From a virus (taxonomy: Duplodnaviria; Heunggongvirae; Uroviricota; Caudoviricetes), in the IMG/VR virus record IMGVR_UViG_3300043313_001192, positions 1 through 25,597 of that record: DNA of 25,597 nucleotides, one strand, 5' to 3'. The notes beneath the pieces are model-generated. The model was not told where the DNA came from, made no database searches, and worked only from the letters and a program-made list of their open reading frames with translations. The position numbers and the translations under genes are program-made. Shown one piece after another: positions 3,842-25,542 of the stretch; within the stretch, counting starts at the first letter, position 1, and every line of letters starts with the position of its first letter.

Positions 3842-4321
3842 ATGTATGAGTCTGAAACAGAAGTCGAGATGCCCTGGGTTTACAACGATGGGGGCTACAA
3901 GACCTCCGGGTTCACGGCCAAGGAGGGCAACCAGGTGGTCATCGCGCTGGCGATCGCCACCGGCCAGGAATACCGCGAGGTCTACCACCAGATCTATCGA
4001 CGGCAGGTCGAGTACGTGAACGGCCTGCGGCACGGACGGATCAAGAAGGCCGGAGCTGCGATCAGCGACGTCGGCGTGTGGCCTGAGGTGAGCAAGGGGT
4101 ATCTGCGCGACCTGGGCTGGACCTGGACGCCGACGATGACAGTCGGCAGCGGGGTGACGATGCACCTCTCGTATGAGGAGGTGCCGGATGAGCCGGTGCT
4201 GGTGTGCAGCGTCAGTCGAAGCCTGGTCACGGTCTTCCACGGCGTCGTCCAGGCCACCCACGACCCGTCTCGCGCGGGCAGCAGAGCTGTCTACGGATTC
4301 TGGGTGCCGCCCGTTTCCTGA
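3842..4321 (+). CDS. Phage C39/papain-like fold protein, apparently catalytically inactive (alternative start 3869)
   Basis: Matches my recollection of the phage family YxDGG...GDCVxRAIAIATG...LGWxWTPTMxIGSG...VSxH...HDTHD.SRxGxRCVYGYW, but has GNQV, VSRS and QATHD at the Cys/His/Asp positions. Confidence 0.7.
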   Translation: MYESETEVEMPWVYNDGGYKTSGFTAKEGNQVVIALAIATGQEYREVYHQIYRRQVEYVNGLRHGRIKKAGAAISDVGVWPEVSKGYLRDLGWTWTPTMTVGSGVTMHLSYEEVPDEPVLVCSVSRSLVTVFHGVVQATHDPSRAGSRAVYGFWVPPVS

Positions 4322-4339: not shown

Positions 4340-4356
4340 TTGACAGTGTGTATGAT
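4340..4356 (+). promoter_or_regulatory. Candidate promoter for the GHKL gene leader
   Basis: TTGACAGTGTG-TATGAT (TGTG-extended -10); predicted TSS about 4362-4364. Confidence 0.55.
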
Positions 4357-4363
4357 CTCCAAC

Positions 4364-4501
4364 GTTGGGGAATCTCAACTCGCCGCCGGTCGGACACCGG
4401 CACTCACCTCTCGCCTACCACGGCACGAGGTGCCCACCGCTGAGATGCACAGCCTTCCACGGCTGGCACGGAGGCGGCAGACCGTCGGTTTCCACACCGA
4501 C
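4364..4501 (+). ncRNA. Structured 5' leader or small RNA: five tandem hairpins, three with a T(T/A)CCAC loop
   Basis: GTTGGG-GAAT-CTCAAC; GCCGGT-CGGAC-ACCGGC; CACCTC..GCC-TACCAC-GGC..GAGGTG; CAGCC-TTCCAC-GGCTG; GTCGGT-TTCCAC-ACCGAC. Confidence 0.5.
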
Positions 4502-4517
4502 TGAAAGAAGGTACGAC

Positions 4518-6887
4518 ATGGGTGCACCAATGCGCCTGAAGAACTCCCATCGGCTCATCGACGGGATCGCACGAGACGGCCGCGAGTTCGGCCACATGAC
4601 CGAGAACCTCCGCGACGCCCTGCTCAACGGCGCGCGCCGCGTCGAGTTCGGGATCATGGGCCTGAGCGACCCGACCGCGGTCTGTGTCGCTCGACGGGTC
4701 ATCGCCGATGACGGCGATGGCATGGGCAAGTCCACGCTCGGTGACACCTACGCCGCGTTCGGCGAGACCGCCACCAAGTACGACTTCGACGTCCAGCTGG
4801 ACGCCGACGGCAACGTCACCACCGACGTCGTCGAGGTCGGTGAGATCGACCAGATGCACGCCCGTCGTGGTGTCGGTGGTCGCGCCAGCCTCTCCCAGTG
4901 GAACCCGCTGGGAGTCGTCACCGTCACGGTGCACCAGGGCGTGGCCAACATGGTCTGGATGTTCCGCAGCATCGAGGGTGTCCCCGAGATGCGCGAGTGG
5001 TCCGACTTCGGCAAGCGCGCCAAGGTGCAGCCGCCGTACGCCGAGCCCGCGGAGCTGTCCTTCGACGACATCCGCATCGACCGCTCGTTCGCGCGGATGA
5101 TGCTGGTGCGCGGTGGACTGGTCGGCACCGAGGACGACGCCGACGAGTTCATCGAGACCTTCGGCGAGGACGAGGTGATGGACAACCCGTTCTACGGCAT
5201 CGACTGGCAGGACGCGGTCCCGCAGTGGGTCGTGCACCACTGGGGCGAGGACGGCCTGGCCTACCGCGAGGACGGCGAGCTGGCTCACGGCTGCGTGAAG
5301 ATCCTGCTCGGTGAGAACCTGCAGCACTCGACCGCGATCACCGGCGACCCGGCGTTCCCGAACGAGGCGGTGCCGACCCGCTACAACGGAGCGCTCACCG
5401 CGGCCTGGCTCGACCTCTCGCAGTGGGAGGTCAAGGTCTGGACGATGGTGAAGTTCGACCCGACCAAGACCGTGCGGTCCGACCCGACCAAGACCGAGGG
5501 GGACAAGCACGTCCCCTACCAGCTGCACGGTCACGCCGGTCACTACAAGCTCGACGGCGGCAAGCCGCGTGACCGCTCGGAGATCTCCGGCCGGATCCAG
5601 CGCGGTGCCTACGGAATGCGCACCCACGGTGGGCGTGCCGCCTACCAGACCGTGCTCGATCTCGGGCAGTACGGCAACGCCGCGCTGATCGTCTCGGGGT
5701 CCGAGAAGAGTTCGTCCTACGACGCCTCCCGCACCGACGGTGCGCTGGCGGTGGTCTACGGCAACGAGCTGCACGCCATCGCCAACTCCGGGAAGCTGCA
5801 GGGCGAGGGCTACCAGTACCGCAACATGGGCATCTCGACCAAGGGTGGCTTCGAGAAGCGGGTCAGCCTGTTCTTCTTCCTGCCGCGCGCCACCGACCAC
5901 TCCCAGGGCGTCTTCCAGGCGCTGGCGCGGGACAGCCTGAAGTGGACCGGCATGGACCGGCTGCCGCTGACCGACGAGGCGGGCATCTACGCCGCCGTCC
6001 GCGACGCACTCCCCGATGACTTCCTGGAGCTGATGAACGGCGAGGCCACGGCCAGCGAGTACAAGGTCGACCAGTCCCGCTACAAGCACCTGGAGAGCCT
6101 GCTCAACGCGGGCAAGGCCGAGGGCAAGGGCGCCACCAGCGCCCCCACCTCGGAGGTCAGCGTCGGCATCGAGCAGCCCACCGGCACGATCACGGGCGTC
6201 GACGCAGGACCGCAGGGAGCCCCTGGCGACACCCCGCGCACGCCGTGCCCGCTGTGTGGACTGGTCGTCCACGCGGACGACTGCAAGAACAAGCCTGCTC
6301 CGCGCATCCGCACCAGTGACGTCCCCACCGGCAGCAAGCTGCGTCGTCGCAAGGTCGCACCGGACGAAACGGGCACGCTGACGGCGCGCAAGTCCAGGGC
6401 CAAGGCGCACGTCGGGGAGATCAAGCCCGACCACGTCGAGCTGCAGGCGCCTGACATCGACTGGTCCGACGAGCCGGTGGACGGCGACGAGCGTGTCCCG
6501 GTGACCTGGGTCGCTCGCGGTGAGACCGCACTGACCGAGAAGGGTGACACCGGCACGATCGTGATCTGGCGCCAGCACCTGGCGGTCAAGGCGATCTTCA
6601 AGGAGGGCGAGAAGGCCGGGCGCGACAAGGACGAGACCGAGGCGGTGGTGCGCGAGTGGATCGGGCGCAACCTCACCGACGGGCTGATGGGCATGCTCGC
6701 GCTGGCCGAGCGGGACCTGGGCGTCAAGCGGATGACCCGTGTCGACCTGGAGGAGATGATCGAGCGGCTGGGCCAGACCGATCTCTGGCTGATGCTGGTG
6801 GCCAGCCTGTTCGCCGACACCGCCTCGCTGGCCAGTCACATCAAGGGCACCGCGCGTCGGACGGCGCGCAAGACCAAGGCTGCCTGA
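4518..6887 (+). CDS. Large GHKL (HATPase_c/MORC/TopoVIB-like) ATPase domain protein, 789 aa
   Basis: ATG 4518 with GAAAGAAGG RBS; N-box-like TENLRDA, G1 IADDGDGMG, G2 RRGVGG; CPLC-x4-H-x3-C putative zinc knuckle; strong C-ending codon bias. Confidence 0.7.
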   Translation: MGAPMRLKNSHRLIDGIARDGREFGHMTENLRDALLNGARRVEFGIMGLSDPTAVCVARRVIADDGDGMGKSTLGDTYAAFGETATKYDFDVQLDADGNVTTDVVEVGEIDQMHARRGVGGRASLSQWNPLGVVTVTVHQGVANMVWMFRSIEGVPEMREWSDFGKRAKVQPPYAEPAELSFDDIRIDRSFARMMLVRGGLVGTEDDADEFIETFGEDEVMDNPFYGIDWQDAVPQWVVHHWGEDGLAYREDGELAHGCVKILLGENLQHSTAITGDPAFPNEAVPTRYNGALTAAWLDLSQWEVKVWTMVKFDPTKTVRSDPTKTEGDKHVPYQLHGHAGHYKLDGGKPRDRSEISGRIQRGAYGMRTHGGRAAYQTVLDLGQYGNAALIVSGSEKSSSYDASRTDGALAVVYGNELHAIANSGKLQGEGYQYRNMGISTKGGFEKRVSLFFFLPRATDHSQGVFQALARDSLKWTGMDRLPLTDEAGIYAAVRDALPDDFLELMNGEATASEYKVDQSRYKHLESLLNAGKAEGKGATSAPTSEVSVGIEQPTGTITGVDAGPQGAPGDTPRTPCPLCGLVVHADDCKNKPAPRIRTSDVPTGSKLRRRKVAPDETGTLTARKSRAKAHVGEIKPDHVELQAPDIDWSDEPVDGDERVPVTWVARGETALTEKGDTGTIVIWRQHLAVKAIFKEGEKAGRDKDETEAVVREWIGRNLTDGLMGMLALAERDLGVKRMTRVDLEEMIERLGQTDLWLMLVASLFADTASLASHIKGTARRTARKTKAA

Positions 6888-6970: not shown

Positions 6971-7648
6971 ATGACGAAGCTAGAGAGATCAGACCGGCCG
7001 ATGACTGTCGGCACGTTGGTCGAGGATGAGATCACCCTGCAGGTGATGAAGGTCTTCGACATCGCACCCGAGGATCTGAGCGAGCGGATCTCGTTCTACC
7101 CGTGGGTCGTCGAGGACGTGCTGCCCCCCGACTGGGGGCTCGGCCTGATCGTCGGGGCCTCGGGCACCGGCAAGACCACCATGCTCGGTGACATCGGCGG
7201 CTATCGCCCGCCGGTGCGCTGGGAACGCGACCTGCCGGTGGCCGCGCACTTCCGTGACTTCGAGGACGCCATGGACCGGCTCGGCGCCGTCGGGCTGAAC
7301 TCGGTGCCCACCTGGGCCAAGCCCTACCACGTGCTCTCCACCGGTGAGCGGTTCCGCGCCGACCTGGCCCGTGCGCTGACCGACGACGCCCGGATCGACG
7401 AGTACACCTCGACGGTCTCGCGCACCGTCGCGCAGGCAGCGTCGCGATCACTCGGCGGGTGGATGAAGCGGAACAACGCCCGCCGAATCGTGCTGGCCAC
7501 CTGCCACTTCGACGTCATCGACTGGCTGGAGCCGGACTGGGTGATCGACACCGACCACGGCACCTTCACCGACGACCTGAGCGTGAAGCCGGAGCGCTGG
7601 TGGCTGGAGTTCGTCCGGGAGCAGGACGGGGCCGTCCGGTGCGAGTGA
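6971..7648 (+). CDS. Soluble ABC-type ATPase of the phage acetyltransferase-associated clade
   Basis: Walker A GASGTGKT, signature LSTGE, Walker B IDEYTS, H-loop ATCHFDVIDWLEPDW; no TM partner nearby. Confidence 0.9.
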   Translation: MTKLERSDRPMTVGTLVEDEITLQVMKVFDIAPEDLSERISFYPWVVEDVLPPDWGLGLIVGASGTGKTTMLGDIGGYRPPVRWERDLPVAAHFRDFEDAMDRLGAVGLNSVPTWAKPYHVLSTGERFRADLARALTDDARIDEYTSTVSRTVAQAASRSLGGWMKRNNARRIVLATCHFDVIDWLEPDWVIDTDHGTFTDDLSVKPERWWLEFVREQDGAVRCE

Positions 7649-8184
7649 GCCTGCGGATCTACCGGCTGGCCAAGGCCCAGCCGGTCTGGGAGCTGTTCGC
7701 CCCGCACCACTACCTGACCCCGGTGCTGACCAAGGGCACCCGCTGCTGGGTCGGCGTGCTGGAGGACACCGACGAGCTGGTGGCGTTCACCTCCTCGATC
7801 CGGATGCCGTCGGGCACCTTGAAGAACGCGTGGCGCGAGCACCGCACCGTGGTGCTGCCGGACTACCAGGGACTCGGCATCGGGTGGCGGATGGCGGAGT
7901 GGCTCGGTGAGTACCACATCCGGCAGGGCGAGCGGCTGTACTCGCGCACCACCCACCCACGGATCGGTGCCGCCCGTGACGCCAGCCCGCTGTGGCGCAA
8001 GACCGCGAAGAGCGGACTGCTGCGCAAGCCCGAGTGGCGCACCGGCGACAAGTGGACCCGCAACAACGACGGTGACCGGGTCCGGATCGCGTTCTCGCAC
8101 GAGTACATGGGAGACAAATCGGACGACACCACCAGACGGGTGACATCGGTCGGTGGTGTGGTGTTAGATCAACCGCACGGGTAA
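7645..8184 (+). CDS. GNAT acetyltransferase, Mom-like
   Basis: GTG 7645 overlaps the ABC stop; WELFAPHHYL motif, acetyl-CoA motif RTVVLPDYQGLGIG, TTHP. Confidence 0.85.
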   Translation: MSLRIYRLAKAQPVWELFAPHHYLTPVLTKGTRCWVGVLEDTDELVAFTSSIRMPSGTLKNAWREHRTVVLPDYQGLGIGWRMAEWLGEYHIRQGERLYSRTTHPRIGAARDASPLWRKTAKSGLLRKPEWRTGDKWTRNNDGDRVRIAFSHEYMGDKSDDTTRRVTSVGGVVLDQPHG

Positions 8185-10447: not shown

Positions 10448-10773
10448 CCGGCCTGAGCGAGGTGCTGGGCGAGATCACCCGGCTCGGCCATGAAATCGAC
10501 GAGCTGAAGATCGAGCGCTCGCACCTGACCGGCCAACTGGAACGACTGGCTGGCACCTGGGACAAGCGCTACCCGCAGCCGATGATGACGCCCAGCCACC
10601 AGCACCGGCTGGTCTGCAGCCGGTGCTACTTCCGCTACATGGACACCACCGAGACTCATGTCCGCTTCGGCACCGACTGCACCTACTGCGGCCGGGACGC
10701 CGGGATGGGCGTGGAGATCCAGCGCACCTGGTTCGAGCGGCAGCTGCAGGACGACGAGGTGACGACGTCATGA
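10444..10773 (+). CDS. Coiled-coil plus CxxC...CxxC zinc-finger protein
   Basis: CSRC and CTYC; GTGA overlap. Confidence 0.75.
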   Translation: MTGLSEVLGEITRLGHEIDELKIERSHLTGQLERLAGTWDKRYPQPMMTPSHQHRLVCSRCYFRYMDTTETHVRFGTDCTYCGRDAGMGVEIQRTWFERQLQDDEVTTS

Positions 10774-11588
10774 AGATCCACTGGCCCGACATCGTGCGTA
10801 TCGCCGAGGTGCTGGTGCGCGCTGAGACCGACTCGCTCGACGTGCCGCCGACCCTGCGACGTGTGCACTACCTGCTGGTCTCCAGCGTCGCCGCGACTGC
10901 GGCGGGCTACCGCAACACCCAGGGCTGCTACAAGGGGCTCTCGGACAAGCTGGCCCGCGCCCGTGAGACCGGCGGATTCCCTCGGCTGACCGACCTGACC
11001 CGTCGGGTGCAGTACCCGCTCACTTTCACCGACGAGCAGGACGCCCGCGACTGGCTGGCCGAGCAGTTCATGCTGGACCGGCGGTCGCTGTTCACCCGAC
11101 GCACGGTGATCGCGGTGGAGAAGGCCGGACTTGTCCCGCTGATCCGTTCCCGGTTCGGCTGGATGGACGTGACCGCGCTGTCCGGCTACTCCTCGCTGAC
11201 CCACGCCCAGTCGCTGGTGCGCTACGACGTCATCGTCTACGCCGGTGACTACGACCCCTCAGGGCTGGACATCAGCCGGGACATCGGCGCCCGCACCGGT
11301 GCCGAGGTGGTCCGGGTGGCGCTGTCGCGTGACCAGGTCGACGAGTACGCGCTGGTCCCGATGCCCGCCAAGGGCACCGACTCCCGGCTGGCCTCGATGA
11401 TCGCCAGCGAGGGCTCGGCGATGCAGGTCGAGCTGGACGCGATGGACCCGGCGGTGCTGCTGGACCTGATCGCCGAGGGCGTGGCCGAGGCCACCGATCT
11501 GGAGATCCAGGAGAACGGGTGGCCGGTCACCGACGACCTGGACGCCGAAGAAGAGGCGATCCGTGAGCGACTGCGTGAAGGAGTCTGA
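10770..11588 (+). CDS. Topo VI-A/Spo11-like WHD+Toprim protein (Mini-A-like), 272 aa
   Basis: ATG 10770 (ATGA overlap); TLRRVHY (catalytic Tyr position), AVEK (Toprim Glu), GYSS, YAGDYDPSG (DxD), ELDAM. Confidence 0.85.
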   Translation: MKIHWPDIVRIAEVLVRAETDSLDVPPTLRRVHYLLVSSVAATAAGYRNTQGCYKGLSDKLARARETGGFPRLTDLTRRVQYPLTFTDEQDARDWLAEQFMLDRRSLFTRRTVIAVEKAGLVPLIRSRFGWMDVTALSGYSSLTHAQSLVRYDVIVYAGDYDPSGLDISRDIGARTGAEVVRVALSRDQVDEYALVPMPAKGTDSRLASMIASEGSAMQVELDAMDPAVLLDLIAEGVAEATDLEIQENGWPVTDDLDAEEEAIRERLREGV

Positions 11589-23127: not shown

Positions 23128-23160
23128 GTTGGGGAATCCTTAGAGTGGCAATCTGATTGC
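23128..23160 (+). promoter_or_regulatory. GTTGGGGAATC-NN-TAGAGT-GGCAATC promoter with GCAATC-T-GATTGC palindrome
   Basis: Near-identical to 23913-23938. Confidence 0.6.
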
Positions 23161-23688: not shown

Positions 23689-23913
23689 ATGGAGAGCGTG
23701 GAGATGGAGAGCGGGAGACAGATGAGGGTCAACGTGGCCGCGGTGGCCGGGATCGTGGTGGGGCTGCTGTGCGCGGTGTGGCTGCTCGCGCACCCGGAGT
23801 CCCCGGTGCTGGTGTTCGTGGCGATGATCGGGTTCGCACTGTTCCTGGTGCTGGGCCTGGTGATGACCGCGGTCTGGGCGGTGCGGACGGTGCGGCGGCT
23901 GCGGGCGCGCTAG
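23689..23913 (+). CDS. Two-TM membrane protein (alternative start 23722)
   Basis: Two hydrophobic segments and a basic C-terminal tail. Confidence 0.7.
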   Translation: MESVEMESGRQMRVNVAAVAGIVVGLLCAVWLLAHPESPVLVFVAMIGFALFLVLGLVMTAVWAVRTVRRLRAR

Positions 23914-23938
23914 TTGGGGAATCTGTATAGTGACAATC
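23913..23938 (+). promoter_or_regulatory. GTTGGGGAATC-TG-TATAGT-GACAATC promoter
   Basis: Near-identical to 23128-23153; near-consensus -10. Confidence 0.6.
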
Positions 23939-24652: not shown

Positions 24653-24762
24653 AGCTGAAAGTGCGCCATCTGGGGCATGCGTCCGGATCGTTTCGAGTCG
24701 CGCGTGAGAGCCGCTCCCGCTCCCGCGTGGGGCGAGCCTCGCGAGGCGTCCCGCGCGGCTGA

Positions 24763-24822
24763 CGCGCCCTGTGACGTGCCCTGTGACGCGCCTAGGCGTG
24801 CACAGGGCGAGCACAGGGCGCG
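24763..24822. repeat. 60-bp imperfect palindrome centred on CCTAGG
   Basis: CGCGCCCTGTG..GCCCTGTG..CGCGCCT|AGGCGTG CACAGGGC..CACAGGGCGCG. Confidence 0.85.
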
Positions 24823-25400
24823 TGTGAGCCTCTCGCGCGTGTCAGGGGCAGGCAGGGCGAGCACAGGGCGAGCACAGGCGAGCACAGGGGCAGGCAACGC
24901 GTGAGCAAGGCACAGGGGCGAGCACAGGCAAGGCATGAGGCATGAGGCATGAGGCATGAGGCAAGGCATGAGGCAAGGCATGAGGCAGGCACAGGGCAGG
25001 GAGGCAGGCAGGCAAGGGAGGCAGGGGAGAGCACAGGCAGGGAGGCAGGGGAGAGCACAGGGGAGAGCACAGGGGAGAGCACAGGGGCAGGGACAGGGAG
25101 AGCACAGGCAAGGCACAGGGCACAGGCAGGGACCTAGGGCAGGGACCTAGGGCAGGGCACAGGCAGACAGGCAGGGGCAGGCACAGGGCACAGGGCACAG
25201 GGCACAGGGGCAGGGCAGGCAGGCGAGCACAGGGGCACAGGGGCGAGCACAGGCAGGCACAGGGCACAGGCAAGGGCACAGGCAGGAGAGGGGCACAGGC
25301 AGGCACAGGGCCACTGTCAGGGAGGGAGAGCCTGCCCTCGAAAGGGAGGGGGAGGACAGGCAGGGTGACAGCGACCCTGTGCCTGTGCACCCTGTGCCCT
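24800..25400 (+). repeat. Oriented GCACAGG/GGCAGG/GGCATGA simple-repeat array
   Basis: About 28 GCACAGG copies (manual count) in 24800-25310, 6 GGCATGA, 2 GGGACCTAGGGCA; almost no T on the + strand; inverted CCTGTG copies at 25376-25398. Confidence 0.9.
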
Positions 25401-25452
25401 CTTGTCTGTCCCTCACACCTATGCGACGGGCGAGCGCTCACGTGCACCCGGT

Positions 25453-25542
25453 GACTGGACACTGTGCTGCACAGTGGTCTAGTCCACGACGCCTGTGATT
25501 TGGCAGTGGCGCAACAGTGCACTAGGCTGACGTATGTCAGCC
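25453..25542. other. Two hairpins distal to the repeat array
   Basis: GACTGGAC-ACTGTGC-T-GCACAGT-G-GTCTAGTC (25453-25484); GGCTGAC-GTAT-GTCAGCC (25525-25542). Confidence 0.6.

Follow-up and report, generated by a model that had tools for sequence, protein, structure and literature searches.

A leader RNA with repeated UNYCAY hexaloops upstream of a MORC-like ATPase gene in a phage genome

RNAs of the CsrB/RsmZ type carry GGA in their repeated loops and are independent transcripts with a terminator of their own. Type III toxin-antitoxin loci consist of tandem near-identical repeats, a terminator and then an endoribonuclease toxin gene, and the translational operators known from phages (MS2 coat operator, T4 gp43, gp32 and RegA) are a single hairpin or an unstructured site, usually including the Shine-Dalgarno sequence (SD) or the AUG. 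ANTAR-target RNAs are hexaloop hairpins with a dimeric reader (PMC3369931), which in actinobacteria are often adjacent to the ribosome-binding site (RBS) and repress translation (PMC8164766). Cuckoo RNAs are trans-acting sRNAs of Alphaproteobacteria with an anti-SD-like loop, CCUCCUCCC (PMC4615179). For the proteins considered here, the sections of the MORC survey that we draw on define the MORC family in its strict sense by a GhXhhpXXRhl motif in the S5 domain, and describe proteins of the MORC/MutL fold as acting on DNA (PMC2292703).

The locus presented here belongs to a complete virus record with direct terminal repeats (176,996 bp, 66.6% GC), the first 25.6 kb of which constitute the window, that is, the whole stretch of 25,597 nt that was analysed. 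The phage terminase is nearest to those of actinobacterial phages (DSL-LC01, 55%; Microbacterium phages of 186-195 kb, 47-49%). The stretch 4364-4517 sits between a 159-codon ORF ending at 4321 and the gene of a 789-aa ATPase, and comprises the following features together with their immediate surroundings:

4351-4356, plus strand: candidate −10 hexamer TATGAT, seen in the sequence; promoter scan silent
4364-4374, plus strand: GTTGGKGAATC motif inside hairpin 1 (4364-4379), from the repeat count in the genome
4385-4401, plus strand: P1, conserved 5′ hairpin GCYRGU-CGGAN-ACYRGC, from 6 loci
4405-4432, plus strand: P2, hairpin with loop UACCAC (4416-4421), from fold, ensemble and covariation
4437-4477, plus strand: P3, hairpin with loop UUCCAC (4455-4460), from fold, ensemble and covariation
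4484-4501, plus strand: P4, hairpin with loop UUCCAC (4490-4495), 22 nt 5′ of the start codon, a position kept in 7/9 loci
4506-4511, plus strand: SD-like AGAAGG, mostly unpaired, from sequence and ensemble
4518-6887, plus strand: predicted MORC/MutL-fold GHKL+S5 ATPase of 789 aa with an ExxxD N-box and an unclassified C-terminal region, from AF2, Foldseek, VIA and profile searches
6246-6284, plus strand: zinc knuckle C-x2-C-x4-H-x3-C (residues 577-589) followed by a basic linker, a candidate RNA-loop reader, from invariant Cys/His

The leader RNA in the window

Both the MFE and the centroid structure fold the leader into five consecutive hairpins (4364-4379, 4385-4401, 4405-4432, 4437-4477 and 4484-4501; z −2.2), reproducing the arrangement given in the preliminary description of this locus, whose coordinates for the three hexaloops and TATGAT were all correct, with the ATG at 4518. 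In the ensemble the hexaloops are fully unpaired and their closing pairs have probabilities of 0.88-1.0. Among 3000 dinucleotide shuffles, one gave three loops of equal length that agree to within a single mismatch. The leader holds the sole triple of stem-closed TNYCAY loops on either strand of the 177-kb genome as well as the two longest TWCCAC-closing stems of that genome. The antisense strand folds more stably than the sense strand (z −3.1); a reading of the loops on that strand, as GUGGAA, found no support.

TATGAT had been called a good −10. The hexamer is present, and homologous leaders carry −10-like hexamers just 5′ of P1 (judged by eye), but no −35 stands at the canonical spacing; because the −35 spacing is wrong and the promoter scan returned no plus-strand site, its role as a −10 is plausible rather than established. 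A perfect TTGACA stands just 5 nt 5′ of TATGAT (window 4340-4356), an odd promoter geometry. At the other end, the last stem does come close to the RBS, P4 ending 4 nt 5′ of AGAAGG, but it does not sequester the SD-like site.

Hairpin 1 coincides with a motif that recurs throughout the phage. GTTGGKGAATC has eight exact copies in the genome, three of them in the window (4364-4374, 23128-23138 and 23913-23923) and the others at genome positions 38814, 67969, 106929, 115372 and 129083, with one-mismatch copies at 72255 and 112730. All eight lie on the plus strand whatever the direction of the neighbouring gene, nearly all at gene boundaries, and 30 Markov simulations produced none. The motif is non-palindromic; it probably serves as a DNA operator close to where transcription begins, and is a candidate for a polar operator or promoter element. 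It was not found in homologous leaders, nor was hairpin 1, which is outside the conserved RNA family: five hairpins fold in the window, as had been described, but the conserved unit has four.

Constant loop, fixed spacing and linkage to one ATPase clade

Two or three hairpins with the loop U-N-Y-C-A-Y are found in nine of the 12 loci of one ATPase clade (about 27-50% identity). In a tree of 73 ATPase rows (quick IQ-TREE, SH-aLRT only; short rows L057, L059, L066, L068 and L069 left out) the motif is confined to this single 12-row clade (SH-aLRT 100), where nine rows have loops, two have P1 only and one has neither, and UNYCAY loops occur in 0/61 rows outside it. Among the homologues, which come from unrelated assemblies, the full form, P1 plus three loops, is present in L001, L002/L003 and L020; two clear loops are present in L004, L016, L017 and L018, while L014 and L015 retain P1 alone and L012 retains nothing. 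In L005 the start deposited for P0005 was placed 28 codons too far 5′, and the surplus codons (4537-4621) are leader RNA with two loops, which a model trained without L005 ranked as its best non-training matches.

Loop positions U1, C4 and A5 are invariant in all 20 hairpin copies. The four pairs that close each loop are intact in 91% of cases and show 19 double-sided changes, a result that none of 500 shuffles reached and that lies far above the slid controls; since the hairpin copies are related, these counts are to be taken as support and not as probabilities. P1, in 6 loci, has 100% of cells paired and two pairs with compensatory change. Loop conservation and compensatory stem changes among homologues, the check proposed in advance for this element, were thus both found. 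In the core stems G-U pairs outnumber C-A pairs by 8 to 3, which favours the sense strand only modestly, and the whole-leader count is indecisive.

The loops recur with a period of 35-45 nt, and the last one lies 20-24 nt 5′ of the AUG in 7/9 loci. A coding N-terminal extension was considered, the frame being open from 4365, and rejected: the period is often not a multiple of three, which makes the repeats non-coding, and in several homologues stop codons interrupt the frame. No U-tailed terminator was found at 4364-4517 (actinobacterial terminators can lack U tails), and no processing site is evident between the leader RNA and the ATPase gene. Antitermination, one of the roles first suggested, is without support because no terminator was found; a free-standing sponge RNA is unlikely given the fixed distance of 20-24 nt from the start codon with no 3′ terminator found.

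Rfam 15 gave no match in the window at gathering score, and none over the L001 and L002 leaders even at E 5. A blastn search of the leader against GenBank phages returned only chance pieces of 24-32 nt, tblastn of the ATPase matched no cultured phage, and scans of IMG/VR and GTDB seeded with proteins of the close clade gave no match. As a leader, the double-loop pattern is absent from 301 sampled Actinomycetota genomes (three had low-complexity matches); its 47 matches in IMG/VR are nearly all in open frames, with none near an ATPase homologue, and the matches of the IMG/VR DNA pattern scan were discarded as coding repeats or unrelated sequence. We found no published description of a UNYCAY-loop leader in a literature search of limited coverage, with Rfam as the one RNA catalogue compared. 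The leader RNA is real and conserved and apparently represents an undescribed family. This agrees with the original proposal of a cis-regulatory leader not described before, or an RNA that partners the ATPase, in which the stems vary and the loops stay constant.

Each of the known systems shares part of this architecture. Like ANTAR-target RNAs, the leader has multiple hexanucleotide loops, each on a stem of 3 bp or more, and its most frequent unit, read on the antisense strand, is similar to the 13-nt consensus published for ANTAR targets; unlike them, it lacks A1/G4, its sense loops having U1 in 20/20 and C4 in 20/20 copies and its antisense loops G at position 1 in 7/20, including all three window copies. 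It also differs in having up to three copies at 35-45 nt plus a separate P1, in front of one gene family rather than a regulon. No ANTAR protein was matched in the phage genome, in a search that gave no match in control genomes either. With CsrB/RsmZ RNAs and CsrA/RsmA leader sites it has in common several hairpins whose stems vary around a constant loop, but its repeated sense loops are devoid of GGA (only P1 has CGGAN), it is positioned in cis with no terminator found, and the phage genome encodes no homologue of CsrA or of KhpA/B. Cuckoo RNAs (PMC4615179) likewise consist of 2-4 hairpins side by side, differing in their stems but identical in a pyrimidine-rich loop motif; here, however, the loop is UNYCAY and not CCUCCUCCC, and the element is a cis leader and not a trans sRNA. 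It departs from type III toxin-antitoxin repeat RNAs in its differing stems, in that no terminator was found and in the GHKL fold of the downstream product. As in phage translational operators, a phage protein is proposed to bind mRNA structure beside the RBS and so limit its own synthesis, but here the site is multivalent, the SD stays free and a GHKL ATPase is put forward as the ligand.

The downstream ATPase and its relatives

Pfam, PHROGs and PADLOC returned no match for the window ATPase. A word-index search found four homologues at 39-50% identity, and a profile search 15 proteins with E values under 1e-30 plus about 100 that are more distant. The AF2 model built from 91 sequences has a pLDDT of 89, and its best Foldseek matches are MORC3, MORC2 and MORC4 (E about 1e-7), with SMCHD1 also matched. 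In VIA, whose matches cover residues 1-513, the model aligned with MutL (Z 15.8, rmsd 4.5, 292 aligned) and Morc3 (Z 14.6, rmsd 4.1, 306 aligned), about 1 Z unit apart, and a profile match to MutL had an E of 6e-5. As modelled, the protein is a member of the GHKL superfamily, with a Bergerat fold plus an S5 domain.

In the N-box (residues 29-33, window 4602-4616) the catalytic Glu is kept in 15/15 close homologues, which rules out an earlier candidate reading with His at that position, and the Mg-binding Asn is replaced by Asp in the same 15/15. This Asn is present in 74/75 distant relatives; the close clade has ExxxD in place of the canonical ExxxN, and its nucleotide or metal chemistry may be altered. 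An atlas search with the C-terminal third gave no usable family, and no nuclease or toxin domain was recognised in the protein. The CCHC knuckle is present in 7/7 full-length motif-bearing proteins versus 0/33 distant GTDB homologues, a correlation that amounts in effect to one evolutionary event because kin share traits; it has no significant Pfam match and persists in members of the clade whose loops are degenerate or missing (L012, L014 and L015). It resembles the CCHC knuckles of retroviral nucleocapsids, which read hairpin loops.

No gene other than that of the ATPase is shared by all homologous loci. In the window it is followed by an ABC ATPase and then a GNAT gene (6971-8184, a split ABC ATPase + GNAT pair, phrog_11143), an arrangement also seen in L004, L005 and L012; the ABC part is found in L002 and L015 as well, and Eco57I-like or Dam-like methylases occupy this position in other loci. 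These neighbours suggest a link of the close clade to DNA modification. No SFII helicase or nuclease recurs beside the ATPase homologues within flanks of 3-10 kb, many contigs being short. Judged against the sections of the survey of prokaryotic MORC/paraMORC ATPases drawn on here (PMC2292703), the window clade is alike in its GHKL+S5 fold, its sporadic mobile distribution and the DNA methylases beside some loci; it differs by having no conserved SFII helicase/nuclease neighbour in these flanks, and by its ExxxD N-box, CCHC knuckle and dedicated leader RNA. A Topo VI-A/DUF2399-like Toprim protein (phrog_6247) is encoded at window 10773-11588; the idea of a split type IIB topoisomerase gained no support, as no Toprim neighbour recurs in the limited flanks fetched for homologous loci. 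Long strand-biased low-complexity non-coding arrays were observed at L012 2897-3524 (GGC-rich) and window 24760-25540 (GCACAGG-rich).

A sister subfamily of ~630-aa GHKL proteins (L021-L069), recovered from 52 GTDB genomes of at least 6 phyla (Planctomycetota, Actinomycetota, Myxococcota, Chloroflexota and others), has neither UNYCAY loops nor the knuckle. Its members have a leader of their own: in about 140 nt 5′ of the GHKL start, two or three repeated hairpins with CUAG..CUAG or CAAG..CUUG stem bases and variable loops, ending just before the SD, were found in 24/58 leaders versus 1/56, 1/54 and 4/51 control windows. These hairpins contain many G-U pairs, and the count of 32 G-U versus 4 A-C places the fold on the sense strand. 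Leader type therefore follows protein lineage and not host phylum, since a subfamily spread over at least six phyla has its own. A third leader type, with two GCAUWGC hairpins, was seen in L065 and L070 (upstream of 3001), belonging to a further GHKL subgroup (Acidobacteriota, Gemmatimonadota). The outgroup ATPases L107 and L109 are leaderless and are overlapped by a conserved upstream ORF of 115-124 aa (L107, 978-1352; L109, 658-1005), which may replace RNA-based control.

Function of the leader

The explanation that we favour, and hold to have about an even chance of being right, is that the leader is a multivalent translational operator on the ATPase mRNA bound by the ATPase itself. The hairpins would be transcribed as the structured 5′ leader of this mRNA, and the encoded MORC-like ATPase, dimeric or oligomeric as GHKL proteins generally are, would recognise two or three UNYCAY loops, possibly via the clade-specific CCHC zinc knuckle and basic linker. 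Occupation of the last loop, about 22 nt from the AUG and next to a free SD, would block 30S loading; repression needs such steric blocking because the SD is not sequestered. Synthesis of a DNA-clamping protein, too much of which is probably harmful, would thereby be under negative feedback; repression, as opposed to activation or stabilisation, is a sign of regulation that we likewise infer. The sister subfamily is a counterpoint to self-binding, for it has a leader yet no knuckle, and we know of no prokaryotic GHKL protein that has been shown to be a sequence-specific RNA binder.

Much of the same evidence would fit an RNA that is a stoichiometric partner of the ATPase, as a processed small RNA or nascent scaffold that inhibits the protein (antitoxin-like), assembles it or targets it. 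Strict linkage to the gene, clade-specific motifs, three evenly spaced sites, the persistence of P1 after loop decay in L014 and L015 and the change of the N-box Asn to Asp in 15/15 close homologues all speak for a partner, but neither a terminator nor an evident processing site was found before the gene, the fixed AUG distance suits translation control better, some relatives (L107 and L109) are in operons without a leader, and the ATPase has no recognised nuclease or toxin domain and no PADLOC match; on balance we consider a partner RNA unlikely. A host RNA-binding protein coupling ATPase synthesis to host state is somewhat more doubtful still. Nova-type KH domains recognise YCAY, which makes KhpA/KhpB or NusA candidate readers, and the invariant C-A of the loop core lies within YCAY. 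Most of the loci that bear the motif have a high GC content, and they probably have actinobacterial hosts in common; the phage itself has no CsrA or KhpA/B homologue. A reader of this kind is, however, hard to reconcile with the absence of a host gene with a double-loop leader in the 301 sampled Actinomycetota genomes, with the different leader of the sister ATPases of Actinomycetota, and with the single occurrence of the motif in the phage genome.

It appears improbable that the repeats act as DNA, with the ATPase or a repressor binding them at the promoter as operators or as extruded hairpins. Action on DNA is what the cited sections report for MORC/MutL-fold proteins (PMC2292703), the unit seen most often, GGC-N6-GCC, forms a spaced palindrome, and a fold is predicted for the antisense strand too. 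Yet the arms vary (GGC, GCC, GGT, AGC, CCC) and stay complementary around a constant spacer, the reverse of a dimer operator; sense-strand G-U pairs are present, and the copies are all co-oriented, 3′ of the −10 and fixed relative to the AUG. We regard as least credible, and as very improbable, an action of the loops by base pairing with start regions or an antisense RNA. The invariant CAY is complementary to AUG/GUG, and the complement RUG-RNA resembles a start plus second codon, but the loops do not covary with the start codon of their own gene (in the window and in L018, CAC loops accompany AUG starts), and 6-nt loops on 3-bp stems are typical of protein sites.

Most likely, then, the leader is autoregulatory and represents a variant within the class of multivalent protein-binding leaders. 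The locus contributes a phage RNA motif that has covariation support and is apparently uncatalogued, together with a testable protein-RNA pair. We further speculate, tentatively and with the chances against it, that a radiation of mobile MORC-like ATPases in phages and bacteria consists of sequence-specific RNA binders, in which each subfamily would have its own repeated-hairpin RNA, with UNYCAY loops in the window clade and CUAG/CAAG stems or GCAUWGC loops in sister groups. The RNA would gate the enzyme itself, serving as its cofactor, its inhibitor or a scaffold for targeting, and the two together would form a GHKL conflict system under RNA control. In eukaryotes, MORC proteins silence mobile DNA. 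Should the phage ATPase indeed read its own leader, it would be, to our knowledge, the first prokaryotic MORC/MutL-fold protein shown to bind RNA sequence-specifically. The subfamily-specific leaders constitute a natural swap experiment and possibly a source of orthogonal translational repressor-operator pairs for actinobacteria.
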